From contig CM069154.1 of assembly GCA_035221665.1 (NCBI GenBank), forward strand, positions 34,224,001 to 34,288,000: a stretch of DNA of 64,000 nucleotides. Direction: 5' to 3'. The position numbers were made by a program, and so were the translations under genes. Origin of the DNA: Okamejei kenojei (taxonomy: Eukaryota). Below are positions 775-62,730 of this stretch, in pieces; the stretch's first letter is position 1; the number at the start of each line of letters is the position of its first letter. Under the pieces are notes generated by a model. That model worked only from the letters and a program-made list of their open reading frames with translations. It did no database searches and was not told the origin of the DNA.

Positions 775-874
775 ACAGACTATCTCCTTCGCTCCTTAGA
801 TGCTGCTGCACCCGCTGAGTTTCTCCAGCTTTTTGTGTACCCTCGATTCTCCAGCATCTGCAGTTCCTTCTTTA
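775..874 (+). mobile_element. Penelope-like 3' end fragment (subfamily B)
   Basis: Same sequence as the arms of the 52510-52730 element. Flanked by direct repeat ACAACAGACTATC at 772-784 and 875-887. Confidence 0.7.
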
Positions 875-1030
875 ACAACAGACTATCCCCCCCGACTGAG
901 TGCCATTCAAGCACATTTTAGTCCAGAAGGATAGTACCACTGCATTTGGATACTTCAGCAAATTAGATTTCAGATTATTAACATGTTATTTAATTTGACA
1001 CTTTTAAAACAACAAAATAATTCAGTGAAT

Positions 1031-1320
1031 AAACACAAAAAGCTGGAGTAACCCAGTGGGTCAGACATTATCTCTGGAGAAAAGGTGACTTTTCAGGTTG
1101 CGACCCTTCTTCAGACTTAGTCAGGGGACAGGGAAACAAGAGATACAGACGGTAATATCAATGTTATCTCGCGTTTTCCTTTCTCCAGACTCTGAAGAAG
1201 GGTCTCGACCCGAAATGTCACCTGTTCCTTTTCTCCAGAGATGCTGTCTGACCCACTGAGTTACTCCAGCTTTTTGTGTCTATCTTCGGTTTAAACCAGC
1301 ATCTGCAGTTTCTTCCGACA
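1031..1320. mobile_element. Inverted pair of Penelope-like 3' ends with hammerhead-like motif
   Basis: Minus copy ~1031-1160, plus copy ~1165-1320. CTGAAGAAGGGTCTCGACCCGAAATGTC at 1192-1219. TSD AAAATAATTCAGTG at 1014-1027 and 1322-1335. Confidence 0.8.
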
Positions 1321-1877
1321 AAAAATAATTCAGTGCATCAGTTTGCCACAGATGGAGCACACTGCTAACTTTGTGGCTCGCTTATAATTTGAGATGGTTT
1401 TGATTTAGTTCAGCAAAATAACTCACTGAAAGTTTTTGATTCAGTTTGAGTTTGAGACAAGTGGATTAAATACACTGATCAAAATGTTATTTTCTGCAAA
1501 GTTTTTCTGAGAATTATTGTATTCAGGAAATAAGTAAAATATATTAACTTACATTTACAGACTACTGAACAGGATAATGGAGGGCGAGGGGGATTCAAAG
1601 GCTCAGAACGACAATGTTTTTGTTGTATAAATAGGCAGTGCTGGAGATGGCTAATATTTGAGGTTTAAATTTCAGTCTTTGATTATAAAGAAACCTGAAA
1701 ATGCACTGCTAGGTTCAGTTCAAATAAGCGACAAGAGGGAAGGCATAGATAGCTGGCCATGAGAATTGGACCGGGGACAAGCATACTCATTTCGTGATGA
1801 TGTTAAGGAATTACTGTATATTCCATGTAAAAATATGTGCTGACCATTCCCAAGTAAGTAAGTTATGAAATAAGACA

Positions 1878-2137
1878 AGTCTGCTGTCTGTGCGGAGTTT
1901 CTGCATTCTCTCTGTGACCGTGTGAGTAGCCTCTGGGTCCACGGGGTTCCAACTACATCCCCAAGACGTGCAGGTTTGTTGGTTAATTGGCCTCTGTGGG
2001 CTACCACTAGTGTGTGGGGACTGGAAAGGCAGGATGGCATACAGCTCGTGTGGGTGAGTAATCTGTGGCTGGTGTGGTCTCGGTGGGCCAAGGAGCTGGT
2101 TTCTATGCTGTGACTCGAAACTAAACTAAGCTAAACT
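1878..2137 (+). mobile_element. HE1/V-SINE, 5'-truncated
   Basis: V-domain-like TGCTGTCTGTGCGGAGTTT...GCAGGTTTGTTGGTTAATTGG and a (CTAAA)n tail. Confidence 0.7.
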
Positions 2138-3102
2138 ACAGTGGACCCATATAAGTAGGTCTGAGATTTGCCAAGTGACAAATGGTTGTATGTCTATGGA
2201 CCACTCCATCACCAGAGTCCATTTGTAACCCAGTGGGAGAGCCCAGCCCTGTTGGGACGCTCCAACATCATGCTGGCCTCTCTGCCCATCTGATTCCACG
2301 TCAATCAGACCTGGTGCAGAATCGTGCAAGCCTTTTATTTCAAGGCTGCGATTCTCAGTCTGCAAAGATGAGGAAGGTCATTAATTTTAAATAATTGAGT
2401 TGAGGTGTTTCCATCGATTTGCAAATACTTCAATGTGTTTTTGGTTAACTTTATCTTCACCCCCAGCTTCAAAGAGTAATGCGGGGAAGGAAGGGGCAGG
2501 AGCACAGTGTGATGCTGCCTGAGGCCTCTTCACCCCTGACCTTGAACTGTCTCCCAGGCACGGAGGGTTGGTGGGGTCAGCCCCCTGTATCCGGCCCGTG
2601 TTGTACACTCAGCGACAGTGGGCAGTGATACCAGGAGGCGGGCTGGGCTCAGCATGGTCCAACCTCCTGACTCTTGGGCGTCTGCATCAGGCTGCGCGGG
2701 ATTGTAAATCACACTCAATATGCATGAAAGCCCCATGCGCACAGATTATCCTTCACCCTGCCAGGGGCAGGTGGCCTCATAACCAGCACTGGTTTCCTGC
2801 TGGAGCTGCTTTGTGTGTAATCCCTTGGTGGTAATGCCTAGAAATGGTTTTGAATGTGTTAATTTGACTGAAAATTACTTTTGTCGCTTTAACCGTTGAA
2901 GCAGTCTGAAGGAGCCTATCTCTCTGGAAATGTTAACTCAATTTCTGTCTCCAATGATACTACCTGGATTGCTGACTTTTGTTCCAGCTCTTGTTTGACA
3001 TAAATTTGCTCTCGATTTCATGCACGCATCATGTATTGTTTGTGTGTTATACTGCATTTCCAAAATATGGTGCCACCGATTACAATGGAACTGCACTGTC
3101 TG

Positions 3103-3300
3103 ATTTAGTTTAGTTTAGTTTATTGTCCCTTGAACCAAGGTACAGCAAAAAACTTTTGTCGTGTGCTAACCAGTCAGCAGAAGGACTATACATGATTACA
3201 ATCTAGTGTACATATATAAGATAAACTGAATAACGTTTAGTTCAAAATAAAGTCCAGCAAAGTCCATGAAAGATAATCTCCAATGAGGTTGACGGTAGCT
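3103..3300 (-). mobile_element. Rex1/Babar-type LINE 3' UTR/tail
   Basis: (TTTAG)n followed by the reverse complement of the tail seen at 43765-43876 and 47820-48045. Confidence 0.6.
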
Positions 3301-3609
3301 CATTATAAGAAGAATATGGGCCAGTTGCTTTAGGATTGCTTCCCACTGGGTTTGTGCCGAATGGCCCTGCATTCTCCCAGTCAGATCTTTCTCTGTGAAT
3401 TCCACCTAATTTGCTCATGGATGAATAGCCGCTATAAACAAATTATACCATCTTGTGCTGTAGTGTGGCATAAATATCAAATGCTGTGGTCTGGTGTAAA
3501 GGCAAGGCACATAAACAGTTTTCTAAAGGGAGAACAAAAAATGCTGAAAACACACAAACCCAGACATTCTTTAGCTATCAGAGATGGGTGTGCACTAGCA
3601 TGTGTGCAA

Positions 3610-4199: not shown

Positions 4200-4296
4200 A
4201 TGGTCTAAAGAAGGGTCTCGACCCAAAACGTCACCCATTCCTTCTCTCCAGAGATGCTCTCTGTCCCGCTGAGTTACTCCACTTTTTTGTGTCTAC
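4200..4296 (+). mobile_element. Penelope-like 3' end with decayed hammerhead motif
   Basis: CTAAAGAAGGGTCTCGACCCAAAACGTC followed by the conserved ...GAGATGCT...GAGTTACTCCA tail. Confidence 0.75.
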
Positions 4297-4444
4297 AGTG
4301 GGGGAAGTGGTCTGTATGTGTGAGGGAAAATTATAACACAAAAGAAAATAAAGAACTTCCATTAAAAGTTCCTGTATCAGCTGCAGAGGATCTAAAGAGG
4401 TGGATGAGTTAGGGGCTCATCCATTAACATTGCTAAATGTCAAT

Positions 4445-7197: not shown

Positions 7198-7332
7198 CTT
7201 CAGGACGTAGGATGCAGGTGTGCTGGTTGTCACTGAGGAAGAAGCCCTCCCGACATCGGCACTCGTAGCTTCCCATCATATTGACACAGATCTGCTGGCA
7301 TCCACCATTGCTATCTCCACATTCATCCACAT
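7198..7332 (-). CDS. scube3: Internal coding exon (135 bp, phase 1-1) of a SCUBE-family gene; calcium-binding EGF domain; best match SCUBE3
   Basis: Translates (D)[44 protein letters not shown](x), with 6-Cys cbEGF spacing. [15 protein letters not shown] and RPE match recalled SCUBE3 better than SCUBE1/2. Acceptor ttttctttctccAG (AG = 7334-7333) and donor GTtgg (7197-7196) on the minus strand. Confidence 0.88.
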
Positions 7333-7424
7333 CTGGAGAAAGAAAAACAGAAGTCATTAAAACTCACTGATGACATTAAATCCCAATACATTGAACCCTT
7401 GTTGAGTGTCATTGTCTGTAACTC

Positions 7425-9570: not shown

Positions 9571-9614
9571 CACTAAGCCTCAAGCCTACTCCACCATTCA
9601 ATAAACCCATTGCA

Positions 9615-10155
9615 CAACTAGTAAAGTGACTGCCTCATAGTCTCAGAGACCCATCCAATCCTGACCTCGGGCGCTGTCCATGTGAAGTGTGCAGGTTCTC
9701 CCAATTTACATGGGCTTCCTCTGAGTGCACCGCTTTCCTCCCACATCCTAAAGATGTGCAGCCACAATGAACTGCAGATGCTGGAATCTTGCACAAAACA
9801 CAAAATGCTGGAGTAACTCCAGCAGGTCAGGCATCACCTCTGGAGGAAATAGATAGGCAACGTTTGGGTCAGGATACTTCTTCACACAGCAAGTCTGAAG
9901 AAGGGTCCCAATTCGAAACGTAGCCTGGCTATATCTTCTTGGGATGCAGCCTGACCCCGTGAGTTACTTCAGCACTTTAAGCTCTACTCCTAAAGATGTG
10001 TAGGTTGGAAGATTAGTCGGCCATTGTAAATTGTAAGTGTGTAGCTAGGTAGAGGAATCTGGAGGAAATTGTTGACAATATGAGGGAACTTAAAAAAGGA
10101 TCATTGTAGGAATGTTGTTTAGTTGATAGTCGGCATGGGCTTGCTGTTTCTGCAC
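9615..10155 (+). mobile_element. HE1/V-SINE with nested inverted Penelope end pair (~9762-9987)
   Basis: TSD TCCTAAAGATGTG at 9746-9758 and 9988-10000. SINE sequence continues on both sides. Confidence 0.75.
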
Positions 10156-15959: not shown

Positions 15960-16905
15960 GGAACCAAGGAACTGCAGATGCTGTTTTACAAAAAAAAAAA
16001 GACACAAAGTGCTGGAGTAACTCAGCAGGTCAGGCTGAAGAATATGGATAAGAGACTTTACGAGACAAATCCTTCTTCAGACTAAGCGGGGGGTGGGGAG
16101 AGAAAGCTGGAAGGGAGATGCAGCAGGACAAAGCCTGGCAGGTAATAGGTTGGTACAGGTGAGGTTTCTTTTTTTGATAGGCAGATGGATGACGGCTGAA
16201 GAAAAAGAAAAGACAAGGTGCGAGACAAAAAGATTGAGGAGCTGAGAATTATGAAGCTAGAGGAAGGGGAGGGGGAGGGAGAAAATAGGTGCGAGTCCAG
16301 ATAGCACACTGGAGAGCGAGTGGTAGGGAAGAAGAGGATTGTTTTAGGGAAAGAGGTGGATGGGGTTTATAGTTACCTAAAATTGAAGAAATCAATGTTC
16401 ACACCATTGGGTTTTAAGCTACACAAGCGGGATATGAGGTGGTGTTCCTTCAGTTTGCATGTGGCCTCATTCTGACAATGGAGGAGCCCAGAACGGGAAG
16501 GTCAAGATGAGAAAGGGAAGGGGAGTTAAAATGGTTAGCAATCTGGAGATCAGGCAGGTCTGGGGGGACTGAGCATAAGTGTTCGGCAAAATGAGTCTAT
16601 GCTTAGTCTTGCTGATGTACAGGAGGCTACATCGGGGACACTGGATACAGTAGATGAGGTTAGAGGAATCTCTGTTTCACCTGGAAGGATTGCTGAGGTC
16701 CCTGGATGGAGGTGAGGGAGGAGCTTTTGGGACAGGTGTTGCATCTCCTGTAGTTGGAGGGGCAAGTACCTGGGGAGGGGATGGTTGAGTAGGAAGGGAT
16801 GAGTGAATTAAGGAATTGCAGAGGCAGCAGTCTCTGTGTAAGGCAGAATGCGATGGGCAAGGGAAGATGTGACTGGTGGTGGAATCATGTTGGAAGTGAC
16901 GGAAA
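15960..16905 (-). mobile_element. Penelope-like element 3' ~950 bp with decayed GIY-YIG endonuclease
   Basis: Broken frames read PGTCP..RRCNTCP..SSLTSIQGPQQSFQVKQRF..., continuing into GIY-YIG-like residues, then 3' UTR and the hammerhead-bearing tail. Confidence 0.8.
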
Positions 16906-16954
16906 TGTATTTTCTAGTGCAAGTTATCTGCACAGCATCCGCATCTGTACCAAA

Positions 16955-18480: not shown

Positions 18481-19039
18481 AACACAGCATGGGGCATAGC
18501 AGTAAAACATTTGGATTTCCAGCCAACATATGTAATGCAAAATTGCTTCATGATCAATGCATAGAGAAAGCTGCAAAAACAAGATAACAAATATCCTTGC
18601 GAGCATCAAGGAAAGGGAGCTACTGTATTTCTGGTTGATATAATGGCCCAGATTTCACTTGGATTTATAGCCGTGGATGTTGTTTAATTTCAGGATTATT
18701 GGTACCGGCAAGTGTCGTTTCACATACCAGTTCAAACACGTCTTCTCGAGGGCCTGCTGGATGCTGGCACAGCGTATCTCCTTCTTACAACTAGGTTTCT
18801 GATTCGCAGTTTCCTCAGGTGAAGCGTAGAGTTAGAAGCTGGGCCTTTGCAGTACGACACAACCAAAGAGGCCTCTTTTTGCCACCTCTTGATATGATGA
18901 TCTTCTCCCCTCCATAGGCCAAAGAGCGGTGCCCATTTGGGTTATAGCCGGATTGTGCATGAAGATGAGTGATCTTCCCAGTGGTGTTCTCGAGCGAGGC
19001 TTCACACCAGCCCAGGCCCCAGTCCAATGACAGTCTTCA

Positions 19040-19550
19040 CTATGTCCGTCTAGGCCTGCACAATCTCCCCGTTGCTAAACACTTTAATTCCCCTTCCCAT
19101 ACTGACCTTTCTGTCCTGGGTCTCCTCCTCTGTCAGAGTGAGGCTAAAGGCAAATTGGAGGAACAGCTCCTCATATTTTGTTTGGGCAGCTTTCAACCCA
19201 GCAGTATGAACATTGATTTCTCTAACTTCCTAACCCTTGTATTCCCCGTCTCTCTCCGTCCCTGCCCCACCATACTTCTCCGACTAGTTTCACTGTCTAC
19301 CTGATTACTGTTTACTGTTATTTACTGTTTGTATGCCTGTTGTCACCTTCCTCTCAGCCAACAATGAACCATTGTACATTTCCTTGACCATTATCAGCTT
19401 TGTTCTGTCATTTTCACACCTTACCCTTCCATATCTCCAGTTTCCCTCTCTTAGTCTGAAGAAGGGTCTCGACCTGAAACATTACCCTTTCCTTCTCTCC
19501 AGAGGTGCTGCCTGTCCCACTGAGTTACTCCAGCATTTTGTGTCGATCTT
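19040..19550 (+). mobile_element. Penelope-like 3' fragment: GIY-YIG C-terminus, 3' UTR and hammerhead motif
   Basis: LPVAKHFNSPSHTDLSVLGL...KLEEQLLIFCLGSFQPSSMNIDFSNF, then CTGAAGAAGGGTCTCGACCTGAAAC at 19456. Confidence 0.82.
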
Positions 19551-19674
19551 CATTATAATGTAGACAACCATGGGAAGTTAGCCTGATCCCACCTGATACA
19601 TGACATCACTGTTAGAAACATTCCCTTTGTCCCCGTCCCATCTTCTCTGATCCCTTGGCCAACATGTTTCTTTG

Positions 19675-19960
19675 TGCAGAAAGGAATTGCAGACGCTGGT
19701 TCATACCAAAGATAGACACAGAGCGCTGGTGTGACTCAGCGGAGCATCTCTGGAGAAAAGGGATGGGTGACGTTACGGGCTGCGACCCTTCTTCTGACCC
19801 CTTGAACTGAAAGAACCTGATTCTTTCTTTCTCAGTTCTGAAGAAGGTTTCCTCATTTGAAATGTGAACCGGTGAAAGTGTCCCGATCCAAAACATCGCC
19901 TATCCATTCTGTCCACAGATGCTGCATGACCCGCTGAGTTATTCCAGCACTTTGCGTTTC
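19675..19960. mobile_element. Inverted Penelope end pair with extra partial motif copies
   Basis: Minus arm 19675-19800 and plus arm ~19835-19960. Confidence 0.65.
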
Positions 19961-21381
19961 ACTTTCACATACCAGCATGGGCATCAAATCACCAACTGCC
20001 CACACACATCTGACATATGCAGGCAAAACACAAGCCGTCACATTGCTCAGGTTGCCAGGTAGCACAGCTCCCACTCAAAATATGCACTCAAGCTTTGTAA
20101 ACTCACTGGTACACATGACACCAAAAAAGCAGTCCATTTCAAAGCTAGAATTTCCAAACTTCCATGCATTACTCCAAATGTGACTTTATGATTCATTGCT
20201 TCAAGTCACAATAACTAGTTTCACCATGATCAACCATCCTTGAAATGCCTCCAAGTACATTTTCATGGTTACTAACAGCTTCAAATTAATTTAATATACA
20301 GAGCAAAGAGTAAAAATGATTTCCACTTAAGCAATTCATTCCAATGCTGATAGCTCATGGATAGGAAATTCTTACATATTATTAACTGTAGACCATATTT
20401 TAAGATGTCTCTCACATATGACCCAGTTTATAATTTATTTAGACTATTACCGGCTAATTTATGTATGGTGTTAAAAAGAATTTGTGAAAACTTTGCTAAG
20501 TACAAAACCATTGCCATCAAGCACTCAACGAATGCATCAATCATTCCTTAGTGTTGAATATTTTTGGCTTTTACTTTTAAACAAAGATCTGGGAATTTTA
20601 GCTGATTTATTTTCTAGACATTAAAACTAAGTTGATGGGAGAATAAAAATAAAGGGAAAAAAAACTGAAATTGGTGAAAAGAAGTGGTTATGTATTGTAT
20701 ATTAGCTTTCTCATTTATCACATACTTTTCTATGTCATAGAAACATACAGTATGGAAACAGGTCCTATATTCTAACTTATCCATGCTGACCACGATGCCC
20801 CATATACTGTACACACCTGCCTGCGTTTAGCCCATATCTATCGAAAATGCCCTATCCGAATATCTTTTATGTGTTTTCTATGTGTTGTCGAATCTTTGTC
20901 AGATGGGATAACTCCTCATACTATTCTTTCTCCAAACCCTCCGCATTGCAGAATGACTGTCATGGACTCAGGGGCTCCATCTTTGAGGGACCATTTGTTT
21001 GGCTTGCACTCCATGAGCCGCGGGTAGGCAATAGGACTGTTAGGGACGCCGAGTTCTCACACCATTCTCGCCCCTACGTCTGACTTCTGCTTTGAACTGG
21101 AGATGGCTGGCGTCCTCCCTGGTTTCCCCACCACGGACCAGGAGCTGCGCTCTGCCTTCCACTCTGCGGAGGCTGAAACCCCTCCTGCAAGGATTCCTCC
21201 CATGCTGAGCCCTTCCCTGGAATCTTCCATTCTGCACCAGAGGCTGCGCCTCTCATTCTCCATGGGTTCCTTCCATCCTGATCCCAAGGATTGTCTTTCC
21301 TCCTCCCAAGCTCGTCCCAGTGATCCAGAGGCTGTGCCCCAACCCAGGATGCCTCCCCCCTCCCCCGACCAAATGCATCAT

Positions 21382-26634: not shown

Positions 26635-26755
26635 GTCCACAGCCAGACTAGCCAGAAAACGCCTGATCGTGACTGATCTTGAAAGCTAAGCAAGATCAGG
26701 ACTGGTTGGTACTTGGATGGGAGAGTGCCTGGGAATACCAGGTGCCATAGGCTTT
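26635..26755 (+). pseudogene. Dispersed 5S rRNA pseudogene (full length, 121 bp)
   Basis: Colinear with vertebrate 5S rRNA: GTCCACAGCCAGAC...GATCTTGAAAGCTAAGCA...GTACTTGGATGGGAGA..GCCTGGGAATACCAGGTGCCATAGGCTTT. Multiple substitutions, single copy, no T4 terminator. Confidence 0.9.
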
Positions 26756-27720: not shown

Positions 27721-27724
27721 CTTA

Positions 27725-34290: not shown

Positions 34291-34547
34291 CTTTGGTGCA
34301 GTGGCCCGGATGTTGCTGAGCTTTGCTGGCAGCTCGACACACTGCAAATATATCCGTGTAAATGCCCGTGAGTTTGAGTCCACTCAGAGCGAAGAATCTG
34401 CTTTTGGATCTTGCTTGAGAAGGAACTGCAAGAACGTTTGCTCACGTTGCGGGGAAGAGGGAAAGAATAAACTGTGTTATGTTTTAAATTATTTGTGTGG
34501 TTTTTAATAATTTCCCTTTATTTGAACAGTTGTAGTTGAACAGTGTA

Positions 34548-37165
34548 CGCATGGACCGTACACTGGCATCTGGGAAAGGGAGAGGAGGGGGCGTCTGCCT
34601 CATGGTCATCTCTGCGTGGTGCTCAGACGTGGCAGTCCTGTCCAACTCCTGCTCTCCACACCTCGAACATCTGGCAGTGAAGTGCCGTCCCTTCTACCTT
34701 CCGAGGGAATTCACCTCCATCATCCTGACCGCGGTCTACATCCCACCCCAGGCAGACGTCCGTCTGGCACTGGAGGAGCTGCACGCCGTGGTCAACAAAC
34801 ACCAGACGTCTTACCCCGAGGCTTTTACCACCATTGCTGGGGACTTCAATAAGGCAAACCAAAATAAATCACTCCCTAACTTCCACCAACATGTCTCCTG
34901 CTGCACCAGAGGACCAAACACCCTCGACCACTGCTACACCACCATCAAGAATGCCTACTGCTCTATCCCTCGCCCTCACTTCGGTAAATCCGACCATACC
35001 GCGGTGCTGCTTCTCCCTGCCTACAGGCAGCAATTAAAGAGCGCACCCCCAGAGGTGAGGACAGTACAGAGCTGGTCGGGGGGGGCAGAGGAACAACTAC
35101 AGGACTGTTTGGAGTCTGTAGACTGGGCAATGTTCAAGGACTCGGCAACGGACTTGAATGAATACGCCACAGTTGTTACAGACTTCATTAAGAAATGTGT
35201 GGAGGACTGCATCCCTACAAAAACCTTCCGAGTGTTTCCCAATCAGAAATCTTGGATGAACTGTGAGATCCGCACTTTTTCTGAAGACCAGACACCGGGC
35301 GTTCATGTCTGATGATACACTGGTCTACACGAAGACCAGATACGACCTTGGTAAGGCCATCAAAAAGGCCAAAAGGGACTTCTGCTCCAAGCTGGAGATG
35401 AGACAGATGTTCGGCAACTGTGGCAGGGACTGAATGCAATCACCTCCTACAAGACGAAACCAGGAGGCAGCTCGGATGTTGACGATACATCACTCCCTGA
35501 TGAGCTCAATGCGTTTTACGCTTTGATGGGGAGAACACCGATGTGCCTTCCCGAGCCCCCATTCGCTGTGATGGTATTTCAGTCTCAGTCACAGAGGCTG
35601 ACGTCAGGAAATCCTTCAGAGGGGTGAACCCTCGAAAAGCGTCTGGACCTGATGGTATACCTGGTCGTGTTCTAAAAACCTGTGCGGACCAACTGGCTGG
35701 AGTTTTTACGGACATTTTCAACCTGTCACTTCTGAGGTCTGAGGTTTCCACCTGCTTCAAAAGGGCATCAATAATACCGGTGCCCAAGAAGAGCAAGGTG
35801 ACGTGCCTCAATGACTATCGACCTGTGGCACTAACGCCTGTGGTGATGAAGTGCTTCGAGAGGTTGATCATGGCGAAAATCAACTCCTACCTCGACAAAA
35901 ACCTGGACCCACTGCAGTTCGCTTACCGCCACAACAGATCAACGGTGGATGCGATCTCGCTGGCCCTCCACTCCGCTCTGGACCACTTGGACAACAAAAA
36001 CTCATATGTCAGGCTGTTATTCATCGATTACAGCTCGGCATTTAACATAATCATCCCCTCCAAGCTGGTTACCAAACTCGCAGAACTGGGTTTCTGCGCA
36101 TCCCTCTGCAATTGGATCCTCGACTTCCTCATTCACAGACCACAGTCTGTTCGTATTGGTGGAAATGTGTCAGACTCGATAACAATCAGCACGGGAGCAC
36201 CTCAAGGCTGCGTGCTCAGCCCCCTGCTGTACTCACTCTATACTCATGACTGCGTAGCCGGTCATAGTGCGAACTCCATCATCAAGTTCGCTGACGACAC
36301 CACTGTTGTGGGACGTATCACTGATGGGGATGAGTCGGAGTATAGAAGAGAGATCGAGCGACTGTCCATATGGTGCCAGCACAATAACCTGGCCCTCAAC
36401 ACCAGCAAAATCAAGGAACTGATTGTGGACTTTGGAAGGAGTAGGATGGGGACCCACAGTCCTGTTTATATCAATGGGTCGATGGTTGAAAGGGTCAAGA
36501 GCTTCAAATTCCTGGGCGTGCACATCTGTGAAGATCTTTCCTGGCCCGAGAACACAGATGCAATTATTAAGAAAGCTCATCAGCGCCTCTACTTCCTGAG
36601 AAGATTACGGAGAGTCGGTCTGTCAAGGAGGACTCTCTCTAACTTCTACAGGTGCACAGTAGAGAGCTTGCTGACCGGTTGCATCGTGACTTGGTTTGGC
36701 AACTTGAGTGCCCTGGAGAGGAAAAGACTACAAAAAGTAGTAAACACTGCCCAGTCCATCATCAGCTCTGACCTTCCTTCCATCGAGGGGATCTATCGCA
36801 GTCGCTGCCTCAAAAAGGCTGGCAGCATCATCAAGGACCCACACCACCCTGGCCACACACTCATCTCCCTGCTACCTTCGGGTAGAAGGTACAGGAGCCT
36901 GAGGACTGCAACGACCAGGTTCAGGAACAGCTACTTCCCCACAGCCATCAGGCTATTAAACTTGGCTCGGACAAAACTCTGAACATTAATACCCCTCCAT
37001 CTGTTATTTGCACTTTATCAATTTATTCAGTCATGTGTGTATTTACGTATATAATTGTAGTCAATGCCTACTATGTTCTGTTGTGCTATGCAAAGAAAGA
37101 ATTTCATTGTCCTGTCAGGGACACATGACAATAAACTCTTTTGACTTGACTTTGACTTTTGACTT
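34548..37165 (+). mobile_element. Rex1/Babar LINE, 5'-truncated, AP endonuclease plus RT, frameshifted between domains
   Basis: EN ORF 34536..35312 (GGGVC, AVYIPP, IAGDFN, TLDHCY, SDH). RT ORF 35543..36982 ([33 protein letters not shown]). AATAAA plus (TTGAC)n tail. Confidence 0.92.
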
Positions 37166-40999: not shown

Positions 41000-41031
<32 letters not shown>

Positions 41032-42330
41032 GGGGGGGGGGGGGTGTCATAGTTTACTGTAGCAGACTCTTCACAGCCATGGGGAAGAAACTGTTCTTCA
41101 GTCTGTTGGTACGTGCTCTCATGACTCTGAGTCTGCCAGAGGGGAGGATGGAGAATAGAGAGTGCCCTGGGTGGGTGGGGTCATCCTGGATCTTTTTGGC
41201 CCGATGGAGGAGACGGCTTGAGTAGATCTCCTCCAAGCGTGGAAGTGGGGAGCCGATGATCCACTGAGCAGTCTTGATGACCCGCTGCAGTTGTTTCTTC
41301 TCAGATGCGGTGCAGCTGGCATACCACACCGTGCATCCGTAGGTCAGGACACTCTCTATTGTGCAATGGTAAAAGTTTTCCAGCAGAGGTGGAGGGAGTC
41401 TGTTTCTCTTCAGCGTTCTCAGGAAGAACAGACGCTGCTGGGCCTTTTTAATAATGTGGGTGGTGTTCACAGTCCAGCCCAGGTCCTCTGAGATGTGCAG
41501 TCCGAGAAATTTGAAGTTTTTGACCCGCTCCACCTCTTCCCCGTTGATGTTCAGGCCTGAATGTAGTGTAGTCCTTGTCCTCCGGAAGTCAATGATGACT
41601 TCTTTTGTCTTCTTGGTGTTAAGGTTGAGGTGGTTGTCGCTGCACCAGGCCGTCAGTGTTCGGACCTCCTCCCTGTATGGTGCCTCATCCTCTTTGTTAA
41701 TCAGTCCAACAATGGTTGTATCATCTGCAAATTTGATGAGGGTGTTGGAGCCATGGGTGGCAACGCAGTCGTGGGTGTACAGTGTGTACAAGACAGGACT
41801 CAGAACACAACCCTGGGGAACACCGGTGTTGAGGACAATGGTGGAGGACGTGGTGGTGCCCATTCTGACATACTGGGGTCTGTTAGTCAGGAAGTCTTTT
41901 ATCCACAGACAGAGGGAGGTTCCAAGTTGCAGTGTCTGTAGTTTGTTGATCAGCCGGCTGGGACTGATGGAGTTGAATGCTGAACTAAAGTCAACAAATA
42001 GCATCCTGATGTATGTGTTGGGACTTTCAATATGGGTGAGAGCGGAGTGGAGGGCAATGGAGATGGCGTCGTCTGTGGATCTTTTGGACTTGTAGGCAAA
42101 CTGATGTTGGTCAAAGCCAGGTGGGATATGGGCCTTGACATGTTGTAACACCAGCCTCTCCATGCATTTCATGATCACCGGTGTCAGGGCCACAGGCCGG
42201 TAATCATTCAGTCCCATGATGGCAGAGGTTTTGGGCACAGGGATTATGGTGGCAGTTTTCAGGCAGGTGGGGACTGTGGCTTGCTGCAGCGAACGGTTAA
42301 AGATGTTAGTGAATACTGCAGCAAGCTGAT
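40752..42330 (-). mobile_element. Rex1/Babar LINE, 5'-truncated, uninterrupted RT ORF
   Basis: ORF 41054..42238(-), extending to ~42330: [33 protein letters not shown]. 3' UTR with (CA)n, AATAAA and (ATTCT)n tail. Confidence 0.92.
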
Positions 42331-42383
42331 GGCTGATTGATCACCGCATCTCCCCGAGGAGAGAGAGGGGGGAGCCGTGGCTG

Positions 42384-44724: not shown

Positions 44725-45117
44725 AGCATAGATACAAATTGCTGGAGTAACTCAGCGAGACAGGCAGCATCTCTGGAGAGAAGGAACGGGTGACGTTTCG
44801 GGTCGAGACCCTTCTTCAGACTGATGTCAGGGGAGTGGGGGGTACATAGAGAAGAAAATGTATGGATAAGGAAGTGTAAGGTGTTTAAACAGGACAAAGG
44901 GAATGGAGATCAAGGAAAATGTAGAATAGATCATTGTTAGTTGGGAGAAGGTAAAAATAAAGTAAACAGAGATCAAATGAAGCCGGAGACAGTACAACTG
45001 GTCGGAGAACTGGGAAGGGGGAGGGGACGGAGAGTGAGGGAAAGCAAGGGTTACTTGAAGTTAGAAAAGTCAATGTTCATACCGCTGGGGTGTAAGCTGT
45101 CCAAGCGAAATATGAAG
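44725..45117 (-). mobile_element. Penelope-like 3' fragment with intact hammerhead motif, inserted in a minus-strand CR1 fragment
   Basis: 44792-44819 is the reverse complement of CTGAAGAAGGGTCTCGACCCGAAACGTC. Upstream frame ends FRLDSLHPSGMNIDFSNF. Confidence 0.82.
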
Positions 45118-49035: not shown

Positions 49036-50122
49036 CTTAATGCAGGTATAAGAGAGCTCTCAGCACCTAGTCTTTCCATCACCTTTGGAAACTTTTATTG
49101 CTTTTTATCAACATGAGGACCAAAGTTGTGCCAATTAAAGTCAAAGAAGCCATTATGAGACTGAGAAACAAGAATAAAACTGTTAGAGACATCAGCCAAA
49201 CCTTAGGCTTACCAAAATCAACTGTTTGGAACATCATTAAAAAGAAAGAGAGCACTGGTGACCTTACCAATCGCAAAGGGACTGGCAGGCCAAGGAAGAC
49301 CTCCACAGCTGATGACAGAAGAATTCTCTCTATAATAAAGAAAAATTCCCAAACACCTGTCCGACAGATCAGAAACACTCTTCTGGAGTCAGGTGTGGAT
49401 TTGTCAATGACCACTGTCCGCAGAAGACTTCATGAACAGAAATACAGAGGCTACACGACAAGATGCAAACCACTGGTTTGCCGCAAAAATAGGATGGCCA
49501 GGTCACAGTTTGCCAAGAAGTACTTAAAAGAGTAACCACAGTTCTGGAAAAAGGTCTTGTGGACAGATGTGACAAAAGTCGGGCCCAGAGCTTCAGCAGC
49601 GGGACAGCATGGACTTTCCATCGCAGAGCGGGGCGATCACTTGCCGGGGATCGCCAGAGAAGAGCTCCGACCGCCGGCCTATACCATCCTGAAGCCGGTA
49701 ACCTATACCATCCTGAAGCCGTGGTCTCCGGTAAGGAAGTGGCCGATTCAGGAACTCTAAGCCACGGAGTATGTTCAATCTGTCCCAAAGTCGGAGCTTC
49801 GATCATCCCGACGAGAGGGCTTGCACATCGGGCCGTCCGTAGCGGCGACTACGGAGGGTCAAGGCCCCCAAACACGGGTGAACAAAAGGAGGAAGGCCAA
49901 TTGAACATTTTTGCCTTCCATCACAGTGAAGAATACTGTGGTGGATATTTATGTTAAATTCTATTGTGTATAGTGTTCTTTTTAATTGTTTGGCTGCATG
50001 GTAACTCATTTCACAGAAACTTAATTGGTGCATGTGACAAATAAATGTGAACCTTGACCTGGTGATGTCCATGAATCGCAGAAGTCAAGCAGTCATTGCA
50101 TGCAAAGGATATGCAACAAAAT

Positions 50123-51335: not shown

Positions 51336-51414
51336 TGGCTATTTTAATTTACATGGCATTGCTGTGTCCCAAATATTATGGTGCCCTGAAATGGGGAGGT
51401 CTATGTATAAAGGC

Positions 51415-51680
51415 TATGTACAAAATTGCTGGAGATTCTCAGCGGGTGCAGCAGCATCTATGGAGCGAAGGAAATAGGCAATGTTTCGGGCCGAAACCCT
51501 TCTTCAGATGATGCAGGGTGGGGGTGGGTGTGGGAGGGGGGGGGGGGGGGGGGGGGGAAGAAGAAAGGAAGAGGAGGAGCCAGAGGGCTGAGGGGGAGCT
51601 AAGAAGGGGAGGAGACAGCAAAGGCTATGGGAAATTGGAGAAGTCAATGTTCAGCCATTGGGGTGCAGACTACCCAAGAC
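51415..51680 (-). mobile_element. Penelope-like 3' fragment (subfamily B) inside the Tc1 right inverted repeat
   Basis: Reverse complement of CTGAAGAAGGGTTTCGGCCCGAAACATT at ~51480-51507, preceded by a ...NIDFSNF frame end. Confidence 0.75.
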
Positions 51681-52509
51681 TAAACACTGCTGTAATTTCT
51701 ACATGCTGAAACCTAAGTGTATAAAAATGACTTTTATTAAAATCTGACAATGTGCACTTTAACCAGATGTGACTTTTTTCTATTCACAAATCTCAAATTG
51801 TGGAGTACAGAGACAAATAAATAAACGATGGGTCTTTGACCCAAACATTATGAAGGGCACTGTACAGTTTTGTAGGTTAATTGGCTTTAGTAAAATTGTA
51901 AATTCTCCCTAGCGTGGTCAGCATGGACTCGGTGGGCTGAAGGGTCTGTTGCGGCACTGTATCTCTAAACTAAACACTCCGTCAGACACTTCCAGAGCTG
52001 TGCAATGTTGTCAGCATTTTATGTCCTTGTAGGTTATTTCACATTTATGTTTTTAAACATGAAGATGACAGGTGAATCGCTATTTGTACTGACAAACACA
52101 GAAGATGGCAAATCTCCACCTGTGACCTGGCCCAGTCATAGTCTCACTTCCAGCCCCTTAGAAGGTGTGAATCTGACAGTGTATCTGCTTTATTAGGACA
52201 GCATGCTTGGATTATACAAAACTTTGTTGTACATATGTCTATGATTTCTTAGCTTATGCCAGCAAAACCACAAAGCAATTCAGAAGGCAGCATTTCCCAA
52301 CCTGTAGCCTGTACCACCAAGAAGGACCAGGACAGCACGTTCAAGAGAACATCTGTAGATTTCCCTTCAAGCTGCACATCTTCCTGAATTGGGAACATAT
52401 CGCTGAGCCTAGATTGTCACTGGATCGCAATCCTGGACTACACTCCCGAACAGCAGTATGGGAGCACTTTCACCTGAACTCAACTCACCATTATCTTCTT
52501 AGGGTATTA

Positions 52510-52730
52510 AAGAAGGAACTGCAGATGCTGGAGAATCGAGGGTTACACAAAAATCTGGAGAAACTCAGCGGGTGCAGCAGCATCTAAGGAGCGAAGGAGA
52601 TAGGCGACGTTTTGGGTCGAGACCCTTCTTCAGACTGAAGAAGGGTCTCGACCCGAAACGTCGCCTATCTCCTTCGCTCCTTAGATGCTGATGCACCCGC
52701 TGAGTTTCTCCAGCTTTTTGTGTAACCCCC
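52510..52730. mobile_element. Near-perfect palindromic Penelope end pair (subfamily B)
   Basis: 94-bp arms 52540-52633 and 52635-52728. TSD ATCTTCT[T/C]AGGGTA at 52493-52506 and 52732-52745. Inserted in an old LINE tail. Confidence 0.88.
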
Positions 52731-54227
52731 CATCTTCTCAGGGTAATTAGGAACAGCAATTAATGCTGGCCTTTTCAGCGAGAGCCAGAGCGTATAAATG
52801 AAGTTTCAGGGAAAATGCGTTGACATGCAATGGAAAGTATGCATGGGCCAAGTATCATATGTTTTAATAAACTATTTCACAGTCCTTTTGCCCACAGTAC
52901 ACTCAACTTGGCAGTGCTGATGCAAATATTGCCTCAATATAGGAACCATATTTTCTGTGGGAGTTAGGACAATGCCCTTATCAGGAAAAAAAGGTACCAT
53001 GATGGAAACCACAAATACAGCAAAAAATGTCTGTGGTACAATCAAAGAGAGGAGAACGAGTCAGTACTTCAGAGATGTCGAGGGGTTCAGATATAAGATT
53101 ATTACATTGGTTTTGTTTATTGGGTTCCATTTCCAATATTTTCTGTTTTGAATTCAGATTTGTAGCTGATTATTTTACTTTATTTACTGTGGCTTCAACT
53201 TTTCATCCTCCTACTGAGCTTGCTAATTAAATATGAGTCAGAGTCTTATGTTATGCATTCTCATTGATGCAAATTCATTTAGTTTAGTTTTTGTTGTGCA
53301 ACTTTCTAAGGCAGATTACTTTGATCTCATCAGATCTGGGTGGCTCCAAGTTCTGTTTGATTCTTCAGAGATCCCGCAGACCTATTGATTCAAGACTTTT
53401 AATTGAATTTCCCAGATGAAACAGCAATATTCCACCCACTGCTCCTTCACATTGCCATTTTTTTCCCTACAATTGTTTTCCTCTTGTTGATGTTTTCCCT
53501 GAGGGCAGGGTTTTTGTTAGATGTTAGTTCATGAACCTCAAATGCCCTGTGCTACTTTCGTTATGCATAAATATTAAACAGGCTATTCAACTGTTGAAGG
53601 AAATTACAGCCAGCACCACCAATTTACAAGCCATTTTTAATGTCAACAGCAAGTTGGAATTCTAGCAAATTTCCCCTCCCTAACCTAGGTGCAGAGAACT
53701 GTTCAAGCAGATCACTGCTCAACTAAGATGTTTCACCTTATCACAGATTGACAATCGAAATGACTCCATATTTATACTCCATATTTATGATTCAGTTGTC
53801 CTTTGGTAAGACTTGTTCGACAGATGGGCTTGAAACTAAATGGTGCATGATAATGTAGACTAATATTTATAGTCCATAATCTTCATGTTCATCAATAAAG
53901 GTATCTCCCACTTCAAGTCCGCAATACTGAATGTATTTTGCAGACACATCTTTGCATTGTTCTGTGCTCCAAAATGTATCATTTGAGCTTTGATTCTTAA
54001 ATCTGGCGAGTACCTTCTTGGTCAATAACAGTACAACGTTCAGCATCAGTAAAACACAGACACAAAAATATGTGCTTCCACTTTTAAGAGTGCACAGAAT
54101 TAGAAACGATAAATTTAAGCTGTTCACCAATGATCTTGTCAGGAATTCAGCAGATTCTCATTAAAATTCAGAAATGATTGAAAATGGTACTTGCTATTAC
54201 AAAATGTACCTTGGCAACCAAAGGAAA

Positions 54228-56366
54228 TTGGTGGCTGGTTTGGCTCAGCCACCAAGCACGACACCTGGAGGCTGCAGCGAATCATCCGATCAGCAGAGAA
54301 GATTATTGGCTGCAACCTTCCCTCCATTGATGAACTGTACACTGCAAGGGCCAGGAAGCGAGCGGGCAAGATCATCTCTGACCCCTCTCACCCTGGCCAC
54401 AAACTCTTTGAATCACTTCTCTCTTGATGGCGACTCCAGACTGTCAATTAAATATTGCCATAAATATTGCGACTCCGGACTGTCAATTAGAAGCTGCCAC
54501 AGCCAGACATACCGTGGCTTGCGAAAGTTTTCATACGCCTTGAACTTTTCCACATTTTGTCACGTTACAACCACAAACGTAAATGTATTTTATTGGGATT
54601 TTATGTGATAGACCAACACAAAGTGGCGCATAATTGTGAAGTGGATGGAAAATTATACATGGTTTTCAAATTTTTTTTTACAAATAAAAAACTGAAAAGT
54701 GTGGCATGCAAAAGTAGTCAGCCCCCTTTACTCTGATACCCCTAAATAAAATCCAGTGCAACCAATTGCCTTCAGAAGTCACCTAATTAGTAAATAGAAT
54801 CCACTTGTGTGTAATCTAATCTCAGTATAAATACAGCTGTTCTGTGAAGGCCTCAGAGGTGTGTTAGAGAACATTAGTGAACAAACAGAATCATGAAGCC
54901 CAAGGAACACACCAGACAGGTCGGGGATAAAGTTGTGGAGAAGTTTAAAGCAGGGTTAGGTCATAAAAAAAATCCCAAGCTTTGAACATCTCACGGAGCA
55001 CTGTTCAATCCATCATCCGAAAATGGAGAGTATGGCACAACTGCAAACCTACCAAGACATGGCCGTCCACCTAAACTGACAGGCCAGGCAAGGAGAGCAT
55101 TGATCAGAGAGCAGCCAAGAGGCCCATGGTAACTCTGGAGGAGCTGCGAGATTCACAGCTCAGGTGGGAGAATCTGTCCACAGGACAACTATTTGTCATG
55201 CACTCCACAAATCGGGCTTTTATGGAAGAGTGGCAAGAAGAAAGCCATTGTTGAAACAAAGCCATAAGAAGTCCCGTTTGCAGTTTGCCACAAGCCATGT
55301 GGGGACACAGCAAACATGTGGAGGAAGGTGCTCTGGTCTGATGAGACTAAAATTGAAGTTTTTGGCCTAAATGCAAAACGCTATGTGTGGCGAAAAACTA
55401 ACACTGCACATCACGCTGAACACACCTTCCCCACTGTGAAACATGGTGGTGGCAGCATCATGCTGTGGGGATGCTTTTCTTCAGCAGGGACAGGGAAGCT
55501 GGTCAGAGTTGATGGGAAGATGGATGGAGCCAAATACAGGGCAATCTTGGAAGAAAACCTGTTAGAGTCTGCAAAAGACTTGAGACTGAGGCGGAGGTTC
55601 ACCTTCCAGCAGGACAACGACCCTAAACATACAGCCAGAGCTACAATGGAATGGTTTAGATCAAAGCATATTCATGTGTTAGAATGGCCCAGTCAAAGTC
55701 CAGAGCTAAATCCAATTGAGAATCTCTGGCAAGACTTGAAAATTGCTGTTCACAGACACTCTCCATCCAATCTGACTGAGCTTGAGCTATTTTGCAAAGA
55801 AGAATGGGCAAACATTTCAGTCTCTAGATGTGCAAAGCTGGTAGAGACATACCCCAAAAGACTTGCAGCTGTAATTGCAGCGAAAGGTGGTTCTACAAAG
55901 TATTGGCGGGGGGGGGGCAGAATAATTTTGCACGCCACACTTTTCAGTTTTTTATTTGTAATAAAATTTGGAAACCATGTATCATTTTCCTTCCACTTCA
56001 CAATTATGCACCACTTTGTGTTGGTCTATCACATACAAATCCCAATAAAATACATTTACGTTTGTGGTTGTAACGTGACAAAATGTGGAAAAGTTCAAGG
56101 GGTATGAAAACTTTTGCAAGCCACTGTAAAAACAGTTTTTATCCACGAGTAGTTGCTCTACTCAACAGTCAAAAATCTGTAGCCTCCCTTTGATCTGGCA
56201 TTTTGTTGGTTCACATACTTGATCAATGGTGTTTTATCATTAACGTTTTATTATTATGTTTTTGAGTCATTCGTAATTGTCACTGTATGTCATGCTGTTA
56301 CTTGTGGGCGGAGCACCAAGGCAAATTCCTTGTATGTGAATACTTGGCCAATAAACTTACTTACTT
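54228..56366 (+). mobile_element. Rex1/Babar 3' fragment hosting the Tc1
   Basis: WFGSATKHDTWRLQRIIRSAEKIIG...DPSHPGHKLF, resuming after the Tc1 as KNSFYPRVVALLN. Tail AATAAACTTACTTACTT. Confidence 0.8.
54512..56126 (+). mobile_element. Full-length (1615 bp) Passport-like Tc1 DD34E transposon, transposase frameshifted
   Basis: TA TSD at 54510-54511 and 56127-56128, ~215-bp TIRs. ATG 54893 MKPKEHTRQV. ORF 55316 has WSDETK...QQDNDPKH...LNPIE with 34 residues between D and E, ending AKGGSTKY. Confidence 0.93.
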
Positions 56367-57660: not shown

Positions 57661-57908
57661 GGGGGGGGGGGGGGGTGTTGCGGAGGGGGGGGGGGTGTGG
57701 GAGTTGTGTGGGAGGGGGGTGTGTGGACGGGGGGGTGGGCGGGGGTGTTGTGGGGTGGGGAGGGGTGTGTGGGCAGGGGGGAGTGGGGGAGGGGTGTGTG
57801 GGCGAGCGGGTTATGGGGTGGGGGGGTTGTGGGGTTGAAGGGTGTGGGGGCGGGGGGTGTGTGTGGGTGGGGGGGTGGGCAGGGGGGAATGGGTGTGGGG
57901 GAGGGGAT
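57660..57908 (+). repeat. G-rich low-complexity tract (G4-prone)
   Basis: More than 20 G-runs of 3 or more separated by short GT linkers. Confidence 0.9.
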
Positions 57909-58095
57909 GGGTGACATTTTGGGTCAAGACCATTCTTCAGACTAGTTACGGAAAAGGGAAACAAGAGATATAGGTAGTCTCCCTTTTCATGAAACGTCAC
58001 CCATTCCAGAGAAGCTGCCTGTCCTGTTGAGTTACTCCAGCTTTTTGTGTCTATCTTCAGTTTAAACCAGCATCTGCAGTTCCTTCCTACACATC
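57905..58095. mobile_element. Inverted Penelope end pair
   Basis: GGGTGACATTTTGGGTCAAGACC..CTTCAG and GAAACGTCACCCATTCC...CAGCATCTGCAGTTCC. Confidence 0.7.
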
Positions 58096-58663
58096 AAGGC
58101 TCTGAATTGGCTTAAATTCTGAAATTCCCAATCAAGTAACTTTGAATTAAATTTGCTCACTTGAAAAAGTAATAATCATTGCAATGATCATTAACTTTTT
58201 TTTAAACCCAATTTAAATATTCAGAGCGAATGGCACAAAGCAAAAGATAGAGCTTGCAACAAAAGATTTATGCTGAGCTAACAACACAAGCCCAAACGTT
58301 TTAATTCTTAGTTTGGACTGTTCTTATCCATGAGTTAATGAAAAGACAGCAGCAGAACCATTTGCTTGCGTTTATGTTGTAAGATATCTGGTCCTCCCTA
58401 AAACATTCCAAGACACAAGGACACTTTTCTACATGGCATTCAATTAATTTTACTCTCACGGCAACTACAGACTTTAGAAAGAAGATTTTGTTTTAATGTA
58501 AAATGCTGATTGCAAGCATGGAATGATAAATAAGAACAAAGATGCTTTTAGGGAAAGGTTACGGTGGGTGGGTGGGGGGGGGGGGGGGAGAGGGTGATGG
58601 ATAGTGAGAGTAGTAAGAGAAAGAACAAAGAATCACAAATCATGACTGGATCTAATCTCCATT

Positions 58664-59030: not shown

Positions 59031-59179
59031 TTAAATTCAATGCTTTTTTTCTTCTTAAGCCATAAGTGAATCAGTGAATAGCATTCACAGATGGCTTTGC
59101 TGGTTCTGTAACATTTCAGAGTACGAGTCTGCCACACCTGCTTTTATTGCTTTGTAACCAACATAATTGCTTTTTAATC

Positions 59180-59315
59180 TAAGATAGGCAGAAAAAGCTG
59201 GAGTAATTCAGCTGTTAGTGGTCGGACAACAGCTCTGGAGAAAAGGAATAGGTGTTGTTTCGGGTCAAGACCCTTCTTCAGTTTAAACCAGCATCTACAG
59301 TTCCTTCCTACACAT
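59180..59315. mobile_element. Penelope end with inversion
   Basis: Minus hammerhead-like GTTTCGGGTCAAGACCCTTCTTCAG joined to plus-strand tail TTTAAACCAGCATCTACAGTTCC. Confidence 0.65.
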
Positions 59316-60599: not shown

Positions 60600-61195
60600 T
60601 GTTACCAGGGCCTTAAAAACACAAGATCTTATTTTGAGAGATATATTTTTGAAAAGCATGTAAGTTATACTAAAACTACATCAAATCTTGGTTAGACCAC
60701 AGTTGTGTATTGCGTATAATACTGGGGTCTATAACATAGGAAGGACTCACAGGCAGTGAGAGGGTGAAGAGAAAATTAACAAGGATTATAGCAGACATGT
60801 GAGGCCATACACATTTTTAGGAAAGGAAGATCAGACTTCTTTCTCTGAAGAAGGCTGACAAGTGACCTAATGGAGGTCTGGGAAAGTGTTTTCAAAAAGA
60901 ACGCGTCCATTTGTAGAGATGAGCATAAGTGGATTAATAAGTCAACATCTGTATGTTAATTACAAATAAATGCAATAGGGAATTCAAAAGAAGGTTTTAT
61001 CCAAATGTGGAACTTGTGACTGGCTAAATAGTACATTCACAGGAGGTTGGACGAGACCACGATGAAGAAGGAACTAGAGGGTTATGATGATAGATCCAGA
61101 TGAGGAAAGAGAAGGAGAGGTTTAATTGGAAGACAACCACCAGCATAAACATGTTGGGCCAAATAGCCGGTTTCTATGCTGTATGTTTAATGTAA
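60600..61195 (+). mobile_element. Old CR1 3' fragment
   Basis: Decayed LVRP.L.Y motif and tail GGGCCAAATAGCCGGTTTCTATGCTGTA. Confidence 0.5.
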
Positions 61196-61244
61196 CCCAA
61201 TATAAGTTTGTAATCAGGCCAATGGTAATCGATCACTGAAAAAG

Positions 61245-61472
61245 CCTGAAGAAGGGTCTTGACCCAAAACGTCACCCATTCTTTCTGCCTATCCCGTTGA
61301 GTTGCTCCAGCATGTTGTGTCTATCTTTGGTATAAACCAGCATTTGCAGATCCTTCCTACACATAGGAGATTTATTTAAGGTAGACACAAAATGCTGGAG
61401 TAACTCAGCGGGACAGGCAGCATCTCTGGAGAGAACGAATGGGCGACGTTTCGAGTCGAGACCCCTTCTTCA
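61245..61472. mobile_element. Two convergent Penelope 3' ends
   Basis: Plus copy 61245-61365, minus copy 61380-61472 with TTTATTTAA direct repeats. Confidence 0.75.
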
Positions 61473-61499
61473 TTCTTTATTTAACCTGGTTTTACTGAA

Positions 61500-62010
61500 A
61501 CTACCCTGTTACATCCTGTAACATCTATCATCCTCACCCCTGTCTCAGTCAAAATACTTTTGGAAATTCATCCAAGATTAACGTTTCACATTCCTGGCCA
61601 GCTTCCTTTGTTCACCCTTCATAATCTTGAAGTCATCCAAATGTTCACACACCATCGTATGTTTAGTGATTTACACTGAATTTCGTTGAAGCCTTGCTTT
61701 TAACATTTATATTCTCATTTTAAATGATTTTCATTGCTGTTGCTCACCATATCTCTGTAATTCTCCCATAAATTGTAATCCAATGCAGAATCTGCACCCC
61801 TCTAATTCTATTTTGCTCATCCTCAAATGTAATTATTCATCCATTGGTTTATTGTCCTTGAGGATGCTGTTAAAAACCTACCTCTTCACCAAAGTTTTGA
61901 TAATACTCAAGTACCTCCACATATGGCTATGCAAAGCTTATTTAATAACACTCCGTGAAGTGTCCTAAAAGATTTCCCAGAATTAAAGGCATTATAAACT
62001 ACAAATTGTT
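61500..62010 (+). mobile_element. Old L2-type LINE 3' end
   Basis: TTAAAAACCTACCTCTT and tail GTGAAGTGTCCT...TTAAAGGCATTATAAACTACAAATTGTTG. Confidence 0.5.
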
Positions 62011-62574
62011 GCAATGGGTATATCCACTAAGTTATGAGGTCAATTTAGTGCACATGAGGAGAGTATCTATTTAACGATACTGTACACAATCTGATAGAAA
62101 ACCGAGTTTTATATTCTTTCAATAAATAAGTGAGTAGGCAATATGCCAAGCATTATAGCTCCATGTAATTTGAGTAATACTCTGTTGGAAGTACTTTAAT
62201 GTCAAAAATCCTCATTTTGGGAGCAACTTAATTAAATACATAAGTAAAACAAGGACATGAACTTCATTGCCATATACTGAGAACGAGAAAAACGCGTAGC
62301 CATTAATGTTAGTATATGATTAGGAGGTCAGATGTTTAATTCAAACCACAACAACATTATTAAACTTCAATTTAAATTTATAATGGCTTTTAAACAAAAT
62401 GACCAACAACATTGGTCATGTGGAAACACACCCGCTATTGCCAAGAAGTGACCACTCAAGCATTGACATAGAATCAAATATCTGGGACAAGCATCATCAT
62501 CTGTGAGACTCTCTCTCACTGCTCCCAGTCTGTAAATCCTGCTGCTCTCCTGGTCTTCAGCCATATTCCGGCCC

Positions 62575-62730
62575 AGATCTTACTTGCTAGGCTTTATCCC
62601 ATCCCCACCTTTCCTTTCCAGCTCTCTCCCCCTACTACACTCAGTCTAAAGAAGAGTCCCAACCCAAAATGCCACCTATCTATTCCCTCCACAGATGCTG
62701 CCCGACCCACTGAGTTATTCCAGCACTTTA
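62575..62730 (+). mobile_element. Degenerate Penelope 3' end
   Basis: TCAGTCTAAAGAAGAGTCCCAACCCAAAATGCC...GAGTTATTCCAGCAC. Confidence 0.6.

Follow-up and report, generated by a model that had tools for sequence, protein, structure and literature searches.

Hammerhead motifs in an Okamejei kenojei gene as probable remnants of a Neptune-type Penelope-like element

A 64,000-nucleotide stretch of the Okamejei kenojei genome (GenBank assembly GCA_035221665.1, contig CM069154.1, positions 34,224,001 to 34,288,000 of the forward strand; hereafter the window) harbors motifs that are probably minimal hammerhead ribozymes in the pseudo-long terminal repeat (pLTR) of a Neptune-type Penelope-like element (PLE), and the copies in the window appear to be mostly decayed stubs that are likely inactive and were likely made from uncut RNA. 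A scan of the window with the 28-mer CTGAAGA-A-GGGTC-TC-GACCC-GAAAC-GTC, in which up to eight mismatches were allowed, yields 21 matches. A profile hidden Markov model (HMM) that comprises the motif and ~100 nt downstream was run on the window, a genome sample and a reversed sample, and it detects 33 pLTR pieces in the window (15 minus, 18 plus). The reversed controls return nothing for the exact 28-mer, the profile HMM and the hammerhead descriptor alike, which excludes chance. The ~20 copies in both orientations that an earlier note on this DNA had read from the sequence are therefore real. The two copies it called intact, 44792-44819(-) and 52635-52662(+), are both exact to the 28-mer, and each variant position that it named is recovered in the scan. 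The motif opens a longer unit of ~95-135 nt.

The consensus takes on a minimal type-I hammerhead anatomy. In order, it has the core, one additional A, stem II (4 bp, capped by a tetraloop), GAA, the ACGU palindrome and C17; stem I is 2 bp long. The extra A is located between positions 9 and 10.1, G10.1 pairs with C11.1, and positions 15.2-16.2 are palindromic. The architecture drawn in the earlier note is correct in its type and palindrome, and its weak stem I of ~2 bp agrees with the 2 bp found by the descriptor, but its stem II of 5 bp with a 2-nt loop has to be replaced by 4 bp with a 4-nt loop, because a 2-nt loop cannot form. A longer stem I was considered and rejected, as positions three and four are unpaired in long copies. 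The core (CUGAnGA / GAAA / UH) with a closed stem II is present in the consensus and in 5 of the 33 window pieces. Of the hammerhead search that the note had suggested, the descriptor recovers these five copies, but an Rfam scan of the window returned no hammerhead family at E values up to 5; the hammerhead identity consequently rests on the descriptor and the PLE context.

The same picture is seen in a genome sample of eighty 10-kb stretches at round coordinates (800 kb), in which the descriptor finds 27 matches among 304 pLTR pieces. About 19 of the 27 have a stem I of at least 2 bp, which corresponds to tens of thousands of copies genome-wide. A relaxed descriptor gives 34 matches in the sample (control 0), all of the same pLTR family; no other hammerhead family was found with it there. 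As these pass rates and that of the window illustrate, the hammerhead decays following insertion, and CpG decay is the common kind of in-motif change among 199 copies. When CpG decay is excluded, subfamily consensuses differ in only 1 of 28 hammerhead columns (in loop 2) compared to 18 of 60 columns downstream (P=0.005; the last 8 ragged columns are left out of the downstream count), so the master elements keep the motif intact. Stem II is invariant across the subfamily consensuses and therefore offers no compensatory change to score. The changes that occur are one-sided, namely U-A to U-G in stem II (11/199) and 23 versus 14 changes at the first stem I pair. The ribozyme of the masters likely acts as a dimer or together with the element's protein.

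The link to Penelope proposed in the earlier note is supported by tblastn with a PLE protein of this genome, which matches 19035-19229(+) and 16379-16907(-). Two of the proposed linkages stand in part. At 44.7-45.1 kb, no more than the final ~20 codons of the endonuclease remain of the GIY-YIG C-terminus, and tblastn missed them; at 15960-16905, the endonuclease linkage holds, but the hammerhead core at 15960-16093 is degenerate. Parent copies were reached by genome searches with the endonuclease piece and the reverse transcriptase (RT). They share the layout pLTR, open reading frame (ORF) encoding RT, a CxxxxCxxC linker and GIY-YIG, 3′ untranslated region (UTR), pLTR. The ORF is single and long and carries a DKG motif, YIDD, a C-X4-C-X2-C linker (copy L078) plus, at its C-terminus, a GIY-YIG domain. 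Downstream of it come a ~240-nt 3′ UTR rich in pyrimidines, then the motif, a further ~65 nt and, optionally, a tail of ~35 nt. Copy L083 is a tandem with a unit of 3,374 bp, hammerheads are found in both flanking repeats (L083, L082), and in L082 an inverted copy adjoins the 5′ repeat. Pfam RVT_1 and GIY-YIG matches to the parent protein are weak and lie below the curated cut-offs, and Atlas groups the protein with RT/HTH_animal/GIY-YIG clusters (score 0.98). Judged by this domain order, the parent is an endonuclease-bearing (EN+) PLE. The linker points to Neptune or Nematis, which share a CX2-5CxxC linker between RT and endonuclease (excerpts of PMC8557442); the clade is called here from the linker.

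The main ATG of the parent ORF lies at +135 from the cut site. An ATG 23 nt past the cut site was rejected as ORF start, since it is out of the main frame in all 25 copies with a hammerhead in which it was scored (in 5 of 30 copies none was scored). This ATG (L286-L315) opens a frame of 57 codons that overlaps the main ORF start in another frame. The upstream frame is found in most of the 25 young copies scored, is shorter in 3 with indels, and could dampen translation.

In the 2.76 Gb of genome searched, the exact 28-mer occurs 48,215 times, and the 304 pieces in the sample extrapolate to ~1.05 million genome-wide. With one piece per 1.9 kb compared to one per 2.6 kb in the sample, the window is typical of its genome in pLTR density. 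Anchored copies were collected from the sample and a 254-kb neighbourhood (231 copies, 226 with flanks). The flanked copies divide into 94 short stand-alone copies, 77 head-to-head copies, 10 tandems and 45 with 3′ UTR. Of 58 short copies, 23 are directly bordered by target duplications of 9-25 bp (two of the 23 being one duplicated insertion), compared to none of 58 in a shifted control; each stub or stub pair thus represents an insertion event complete in itself. The 77 head-to-head copies also imply very many ~100-bp intronic hairpins genome-wide, which are possible substrates for A-to-I editing or small-RNA pathways.

The prevalence of short and paired short copies (171 of 226), together with their own target duplications and the non-autonomous PLE derivatives that have been described (excerpts of PMC8557442 and bioRxiv 10.64898/2026.07.22.740005), would fit a separate non-autonomous, ribozyme-defined family, as the earlier note had suggested, of the retrozyme or SINE (short interspersed nuclear element) type with its own master genes. 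This is improbable. The short copies share the diagnostic bases of the long ones, and each of the three main subfamily clusters contains both (97 copies, 26 of them long; 33 with 4 long; 25 with 6 long), which argues against a separate lineage; a fourth cluster of 6 degraded copies has no long member. Moreover, young stubs carry the pLTR sequence of the parent, and a tandem arrangement, which is part of the definition of retrozymes, is seen in only 10 of the 226 copies. Transcription of solo pLTRs and their copying in trans could nevertheless occur.

At the 5′ side, 30 of 39 young-family copies end at -5 to +10 relative to C3 and 6 extend at least 462 nt upstream. Only 1 of 39 ends within 2 nt of the cut site, where just 3 of 306 profile HMM matches start. 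As they extend across the cut site and break off right before the core, the copies were likely made on uncut templates. At the 3′ side, 26 copies end at +52 to +71 and 13 at +93 to +102, giving two sites ~35 nt apart. Genome-wide, 21,090 of the 48,215 exact cores are found without the element's own 4 upstream bases, part of which is due to mutation and subfamily variation. An apparent 5′-end cluster at -163 was discarded as an indel artefact of ungapped extension.

A mechanism can be proposed by comparison with the Anolis Poseidon element PAc (Frangieh et al. 2024, PMC11167929; cited from excerpts). In this anole element, the tail is defined by two internal sites at which RT starts, and the RNA template is mainly uncut. 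Cutting and extension affect both target strands, and cleavage by the hammerhead requires the protein. In the Okamejei element, RT would likewise start internally at two sites, which lie ~65 and ~100 nt beyond the cut site. If it did so in the 5′ pLTR, the RNA would end after only 95-135 nt and a stub would result, and two such events, one per nicked strand, would produce head-to-head pairs. Long copies would require a template in which an ORF lies upstream of a pLTR (tandem read-through, jump or circle). An RNA that begins just in front of the core would be the simplest reason for the RT stop, and the ribozyme would be kept intact in master elements and decay once inserted.

Taken further, the stubs may be the Penelope equivalent of retroviral strong-stop DNA that is integrated directly, a possible but doubtful idea. 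RNA would start 2-4 bases before the core, uncut capped RNA primed internally would give rise to the ~1 million stubs and twin-primed hairpins, and the ribozyme would cut and circularise the RNA, which would allow the entire element to be copied from the same priming site. In that case, the ratio of stubs to long copies would preserve a fossil record of how active the ribozyme has been in vivo. A literature search, in which subscription journals and Repbase were poorly covered, found no paper that joins PLEs with strong-stop DNA.

The bases at the 5′ edge of the stubs match the initiator consensus, which speaks for an RNA start and against a mere stop of RT, and 5 of 30 copies with an ORF start also begin at +1 to +3. 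An internal promoter is located in the pLTR of Drosophila virilis Penelope (excerpts of PMC2377424). A cap should leave an extra G, and most full-length L1 insertions carry one (excerpts of PMC11702581). Of the stand-alone copies, 20 of 30 have G as their first departing base (9.2 expected, P=5e-5), as do 9 of 14 in transversion-only classes (P=0.015). Several observations weigh against an RNA start at this edge. The G share in two genome-wide sets is 37% (2,143/5,806; ~26% expected) and 49% (3,308/6,796; ~29% expected), and 7 of 25 and 9 of 25 G-class loci examined are inversion junctions. Among 23 copies defined by target duplications (sets chosen by base), a single non-templated G is seen in only 3 and a single T in 1. 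The 5′ ends are scattered over ~10 nt, and ORF-bearing copies begin at +1 to +3, not at -3. Of 30 ORF-bearing copies, 20 continue past the edge in the upstream direction (19 by at least 75 nt), so many templates (tandem, jumped or circular) do not start there. The RT starts precede the ORF, unlike those of the anole element, which lie inside it. An overlapping internal promoter could also account in part for the conserved 28-mer. The cap-derived G lends modest support.

The same element could produce the 5′ pile-up through an RT stop or template-switch hotspot on a longer RNA, caused by the palindrome before the core or by a protein-bound ribozyme. This explanation, which we consider unlikely, accounts for the head-to-head copies with their junctions in the 5′-edge zone, the spread of 5′ ends and the low cap-G share, and inverted-junction palindromes have been read as self-priming (excerpts of PMC3846280). 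At the stopping point, however, RT is already past the whole ribozyme. Where structure halts RT, the stop is usually located at the 3′ base of the helix. The persisting G excess among stand-alone copies and the D. virilis promoter likewise argue against it. A splice acceptor before the core (pyrimidine tract and CAG, as in D. virilis) was rejected as the origin of the stubs, since target duplications sit 0-10 nt from the core, too close for an upstream exon to fit in between.

The host gene lies on the minus strand, so minus-strand copies are sense in its pre-mRNA, as the earlier note had stated. Its exon in the window encodes a calcium-binding EGF domain of a SCUBE-type gene (7202-7333(-)); further EGF exons lie beyond the window, two of them upstream (+79.1 and +81.3 kb) and three downstream (-51.7, -58.2 and -67.5 kb). 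Because the exon at about 7202-7333 splits it, the window covers parts of two introns, not the single SCUBE3 intron of the earlier note. Judging by the exon sequences, the gene is presumably SCUBE3; domain tools confirm EGF_CA/FXa-type domains only. Outside the window, ~102 kb from its start (G000:C24, near 34,326,000, plus strand), lies an inverted partial duplicate of the host's second EGF exon, which includes the acceptor flank and terminates in a stop.

The copy at 44792-44819(-) is exact and sense, and this, together with the stem I of at least 2 bp in most descriptor matches of the sample, might suggest that functional ribozymes cleave the pre-mRNA of the host and thereby tune its gene. 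Such a role is very improbable. Stem I has 2 bp and stem III requires a partner, and among the five descriptor-passing window copies this one alone is intact, sense and outside a fold-back, the other sense copy lying 14 kb off within a fold-back. Energy minimisation predicts folds other than a hammerhead for the copy (z from about -0.9 to +0.3). Over the mapped gene span, 41 copies are sense and 51 antisense (P=0.35), and 3 versus 5 of the intact ones (low power). Published monomers of this class did not cleave and dimers cleaved weakly (PMC4209133). With genome-typical density, balanced strands and one free intact sense copy, nothing suggests a role for the pLTR copies in the host gene, where they are likely idle.

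The 5′-truncated PLE end at 44728-45117(-) contains the last endonuclease codons, the pyrimidine-rich 3′ UTR, the exact hammerhead at 44792-44819(-) with its 2-bp stem I and a pLTR remainder of ~65 nt. A truncated PLE at 19035-19563(+) comprises the endonuclease C-terminus (63% identity to the PLE protein), UTR and a hammerhead with a 15.2-16.2 mismatch, and an older one at 15961-16907(-) retains a zinc-finger-like linker, GIY-YIG and a degenerate hammerhead. The second exact core, 52635-52662(+), belongs to a single head-to-head insertion of two short pLTR copies (52507-52731), which is flanked by a 14-bp target duplication (52493-52506 and 52732-52745), has a tail on one arm only and is predicted to form one ~100-bp hairpin. 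This core has a stem I of 0 bp, is antisense to the host gene and lies inside a 99-bp fold-back whose sense arm has G12 mutated.

The window has 7 head-to-head pairs, 3 of which are flanked by target duplications, the other two of these being the pair at 1031-1321 (17 bp; cores 1087-1114 minus and 1192-1219 plus) and that at 9762-9987 (16 bp). The remaining pairs are located at 19668-19966 (both cores broken; a target duplication was looked for and none found), 28055-28287 (15.2-16.2 mismatch in the minus core), 30682-30880 (minus core 30758-30785 passes the descriptor, with A-U replacing G-C in stem II) and 57902-58097 (simple sequence between the arms, core broken at G12). A tail-to-tail pair with both cores broken is found at 61233-61473; the Rfam mir-624 match at 61298-61407 (39.4 bits, gathering 100) is the hairpin between its pLTR copies. 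Single copies include a short stand-alone copy that begins at the hammerhead edge (4200-4297(+), G5 and G12 mutated), a subfamily variant with a U-G closing pair and UUCG loop in stem II and a 15.2-16.2 mismatch (51401-51509(-)), and a copy with mutated U16.1 (59171-59303(-)). The pLTR piece at 775-882 (780-882(+) as a feature) lacks the hammerhead. No tandem of intact cores occurs within the window.

Other repeats are also present in the window. A 5S rRNA-like copy at 26635-26753(+) (Rfam 45.8 bits, gathering 38, many broken pairs) is likely a pseudogene or 5S-derived repeat. Endonuclease/RT frames of the LINE (long interspersed nuclear element) type at 34536-36982(+) (258 and 492 aa) and 41054-42340(-) (428 aa) are largely open and therefore fairly young insertions. 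A Tc1/mariner transposase fragment lies at 49071-49535(+) (Pfam HTH_Tnp_Tc3_2), and a second Tc1-like element with ~180-bp inverted ends at 54510-56128.

The Okamejei motifs resemble the minimal hammerheads of metazoan PLEs (PMC4209133), which are known from fish Neptune, Poseidon and Xena elements. Both are of type I and consist of the core only, with an extra base 9/10.1, a G10.1-C11.1 pair, a palindromic 15.2-16.2 and no loop 3, and both occur mostly as single dispersed copies with some close opposite-strand pairs. Stem I has 2 bp here as in D. virilis (4-5 bp in Schistosoma), stem II has only 4 bp, and the subfamilies show little sequence variety. The ~90,000 descriptor-passing copies and ~1 million in total (extrapolated) compare to 4,000 in coelacanth and 9,000 in Xenopus, although the descriptors differ. 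Shark or skate terms are absent from the one PMC4209133 supplement file searched.

As in PAc, the two putative RT start sites lie about a tail length apart downstream of the hammerhead, ends are absent from the cleavage site, and both target strands would be cut and extended. PAc differs in belonging to the Poseidon clade and in an ORF that starts inside the ribozyme, with the RT starts in the ORF, whereas the main ATG is at +135 here. The excerpts of PMC11167929 describe no 5′-end pile-up at the front edge of the ribozyme, which is present here. Strong 5′ truncation, partial tandems, an adjacent inverted 5′ copy, a 30-40-bp tail at one end, target duplications and the Neptune/Nematis CX2-5CxxC linker are shared with EN+ PLE insertions (excerpts of PMC8557442 and PMC3846280), but pLTR-only stubs and stub pairs with a fixed 5′ edge are the majority here. 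Animal non-LTR retrozymes, in a survey that included one chondrichthyan (excerpts of bioRxiv 10.64898/2026.07.22.740005), are similarly non-coding, hammerhead-bearing and derived from PLE pLTRs; theirs are tandem arrays with at least two complete ribozymes, whereas copies here are rarely tandem and match the autonomous pLTR. The pLTR family may already figure in the chondrichthyan families of that survey or in the PMC4209133 supplements.

As a ribozyme finding, the window is ordinary: the class has been known since its description in 2014, and other parts of the genome look much the same. The copy number, however, appears to be ~10 times above the counts in the class-defining paper, and the fixed ends of young copies form a large natural data set on PLE copying and on the purpose of the hammerhead, a question that is left open in the excerpts of PMC11167929. 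If the RNA does start just in front of the core, this would place the promoter start and predict a changed proportion of stubs to long insertions in ribozyme mutants.

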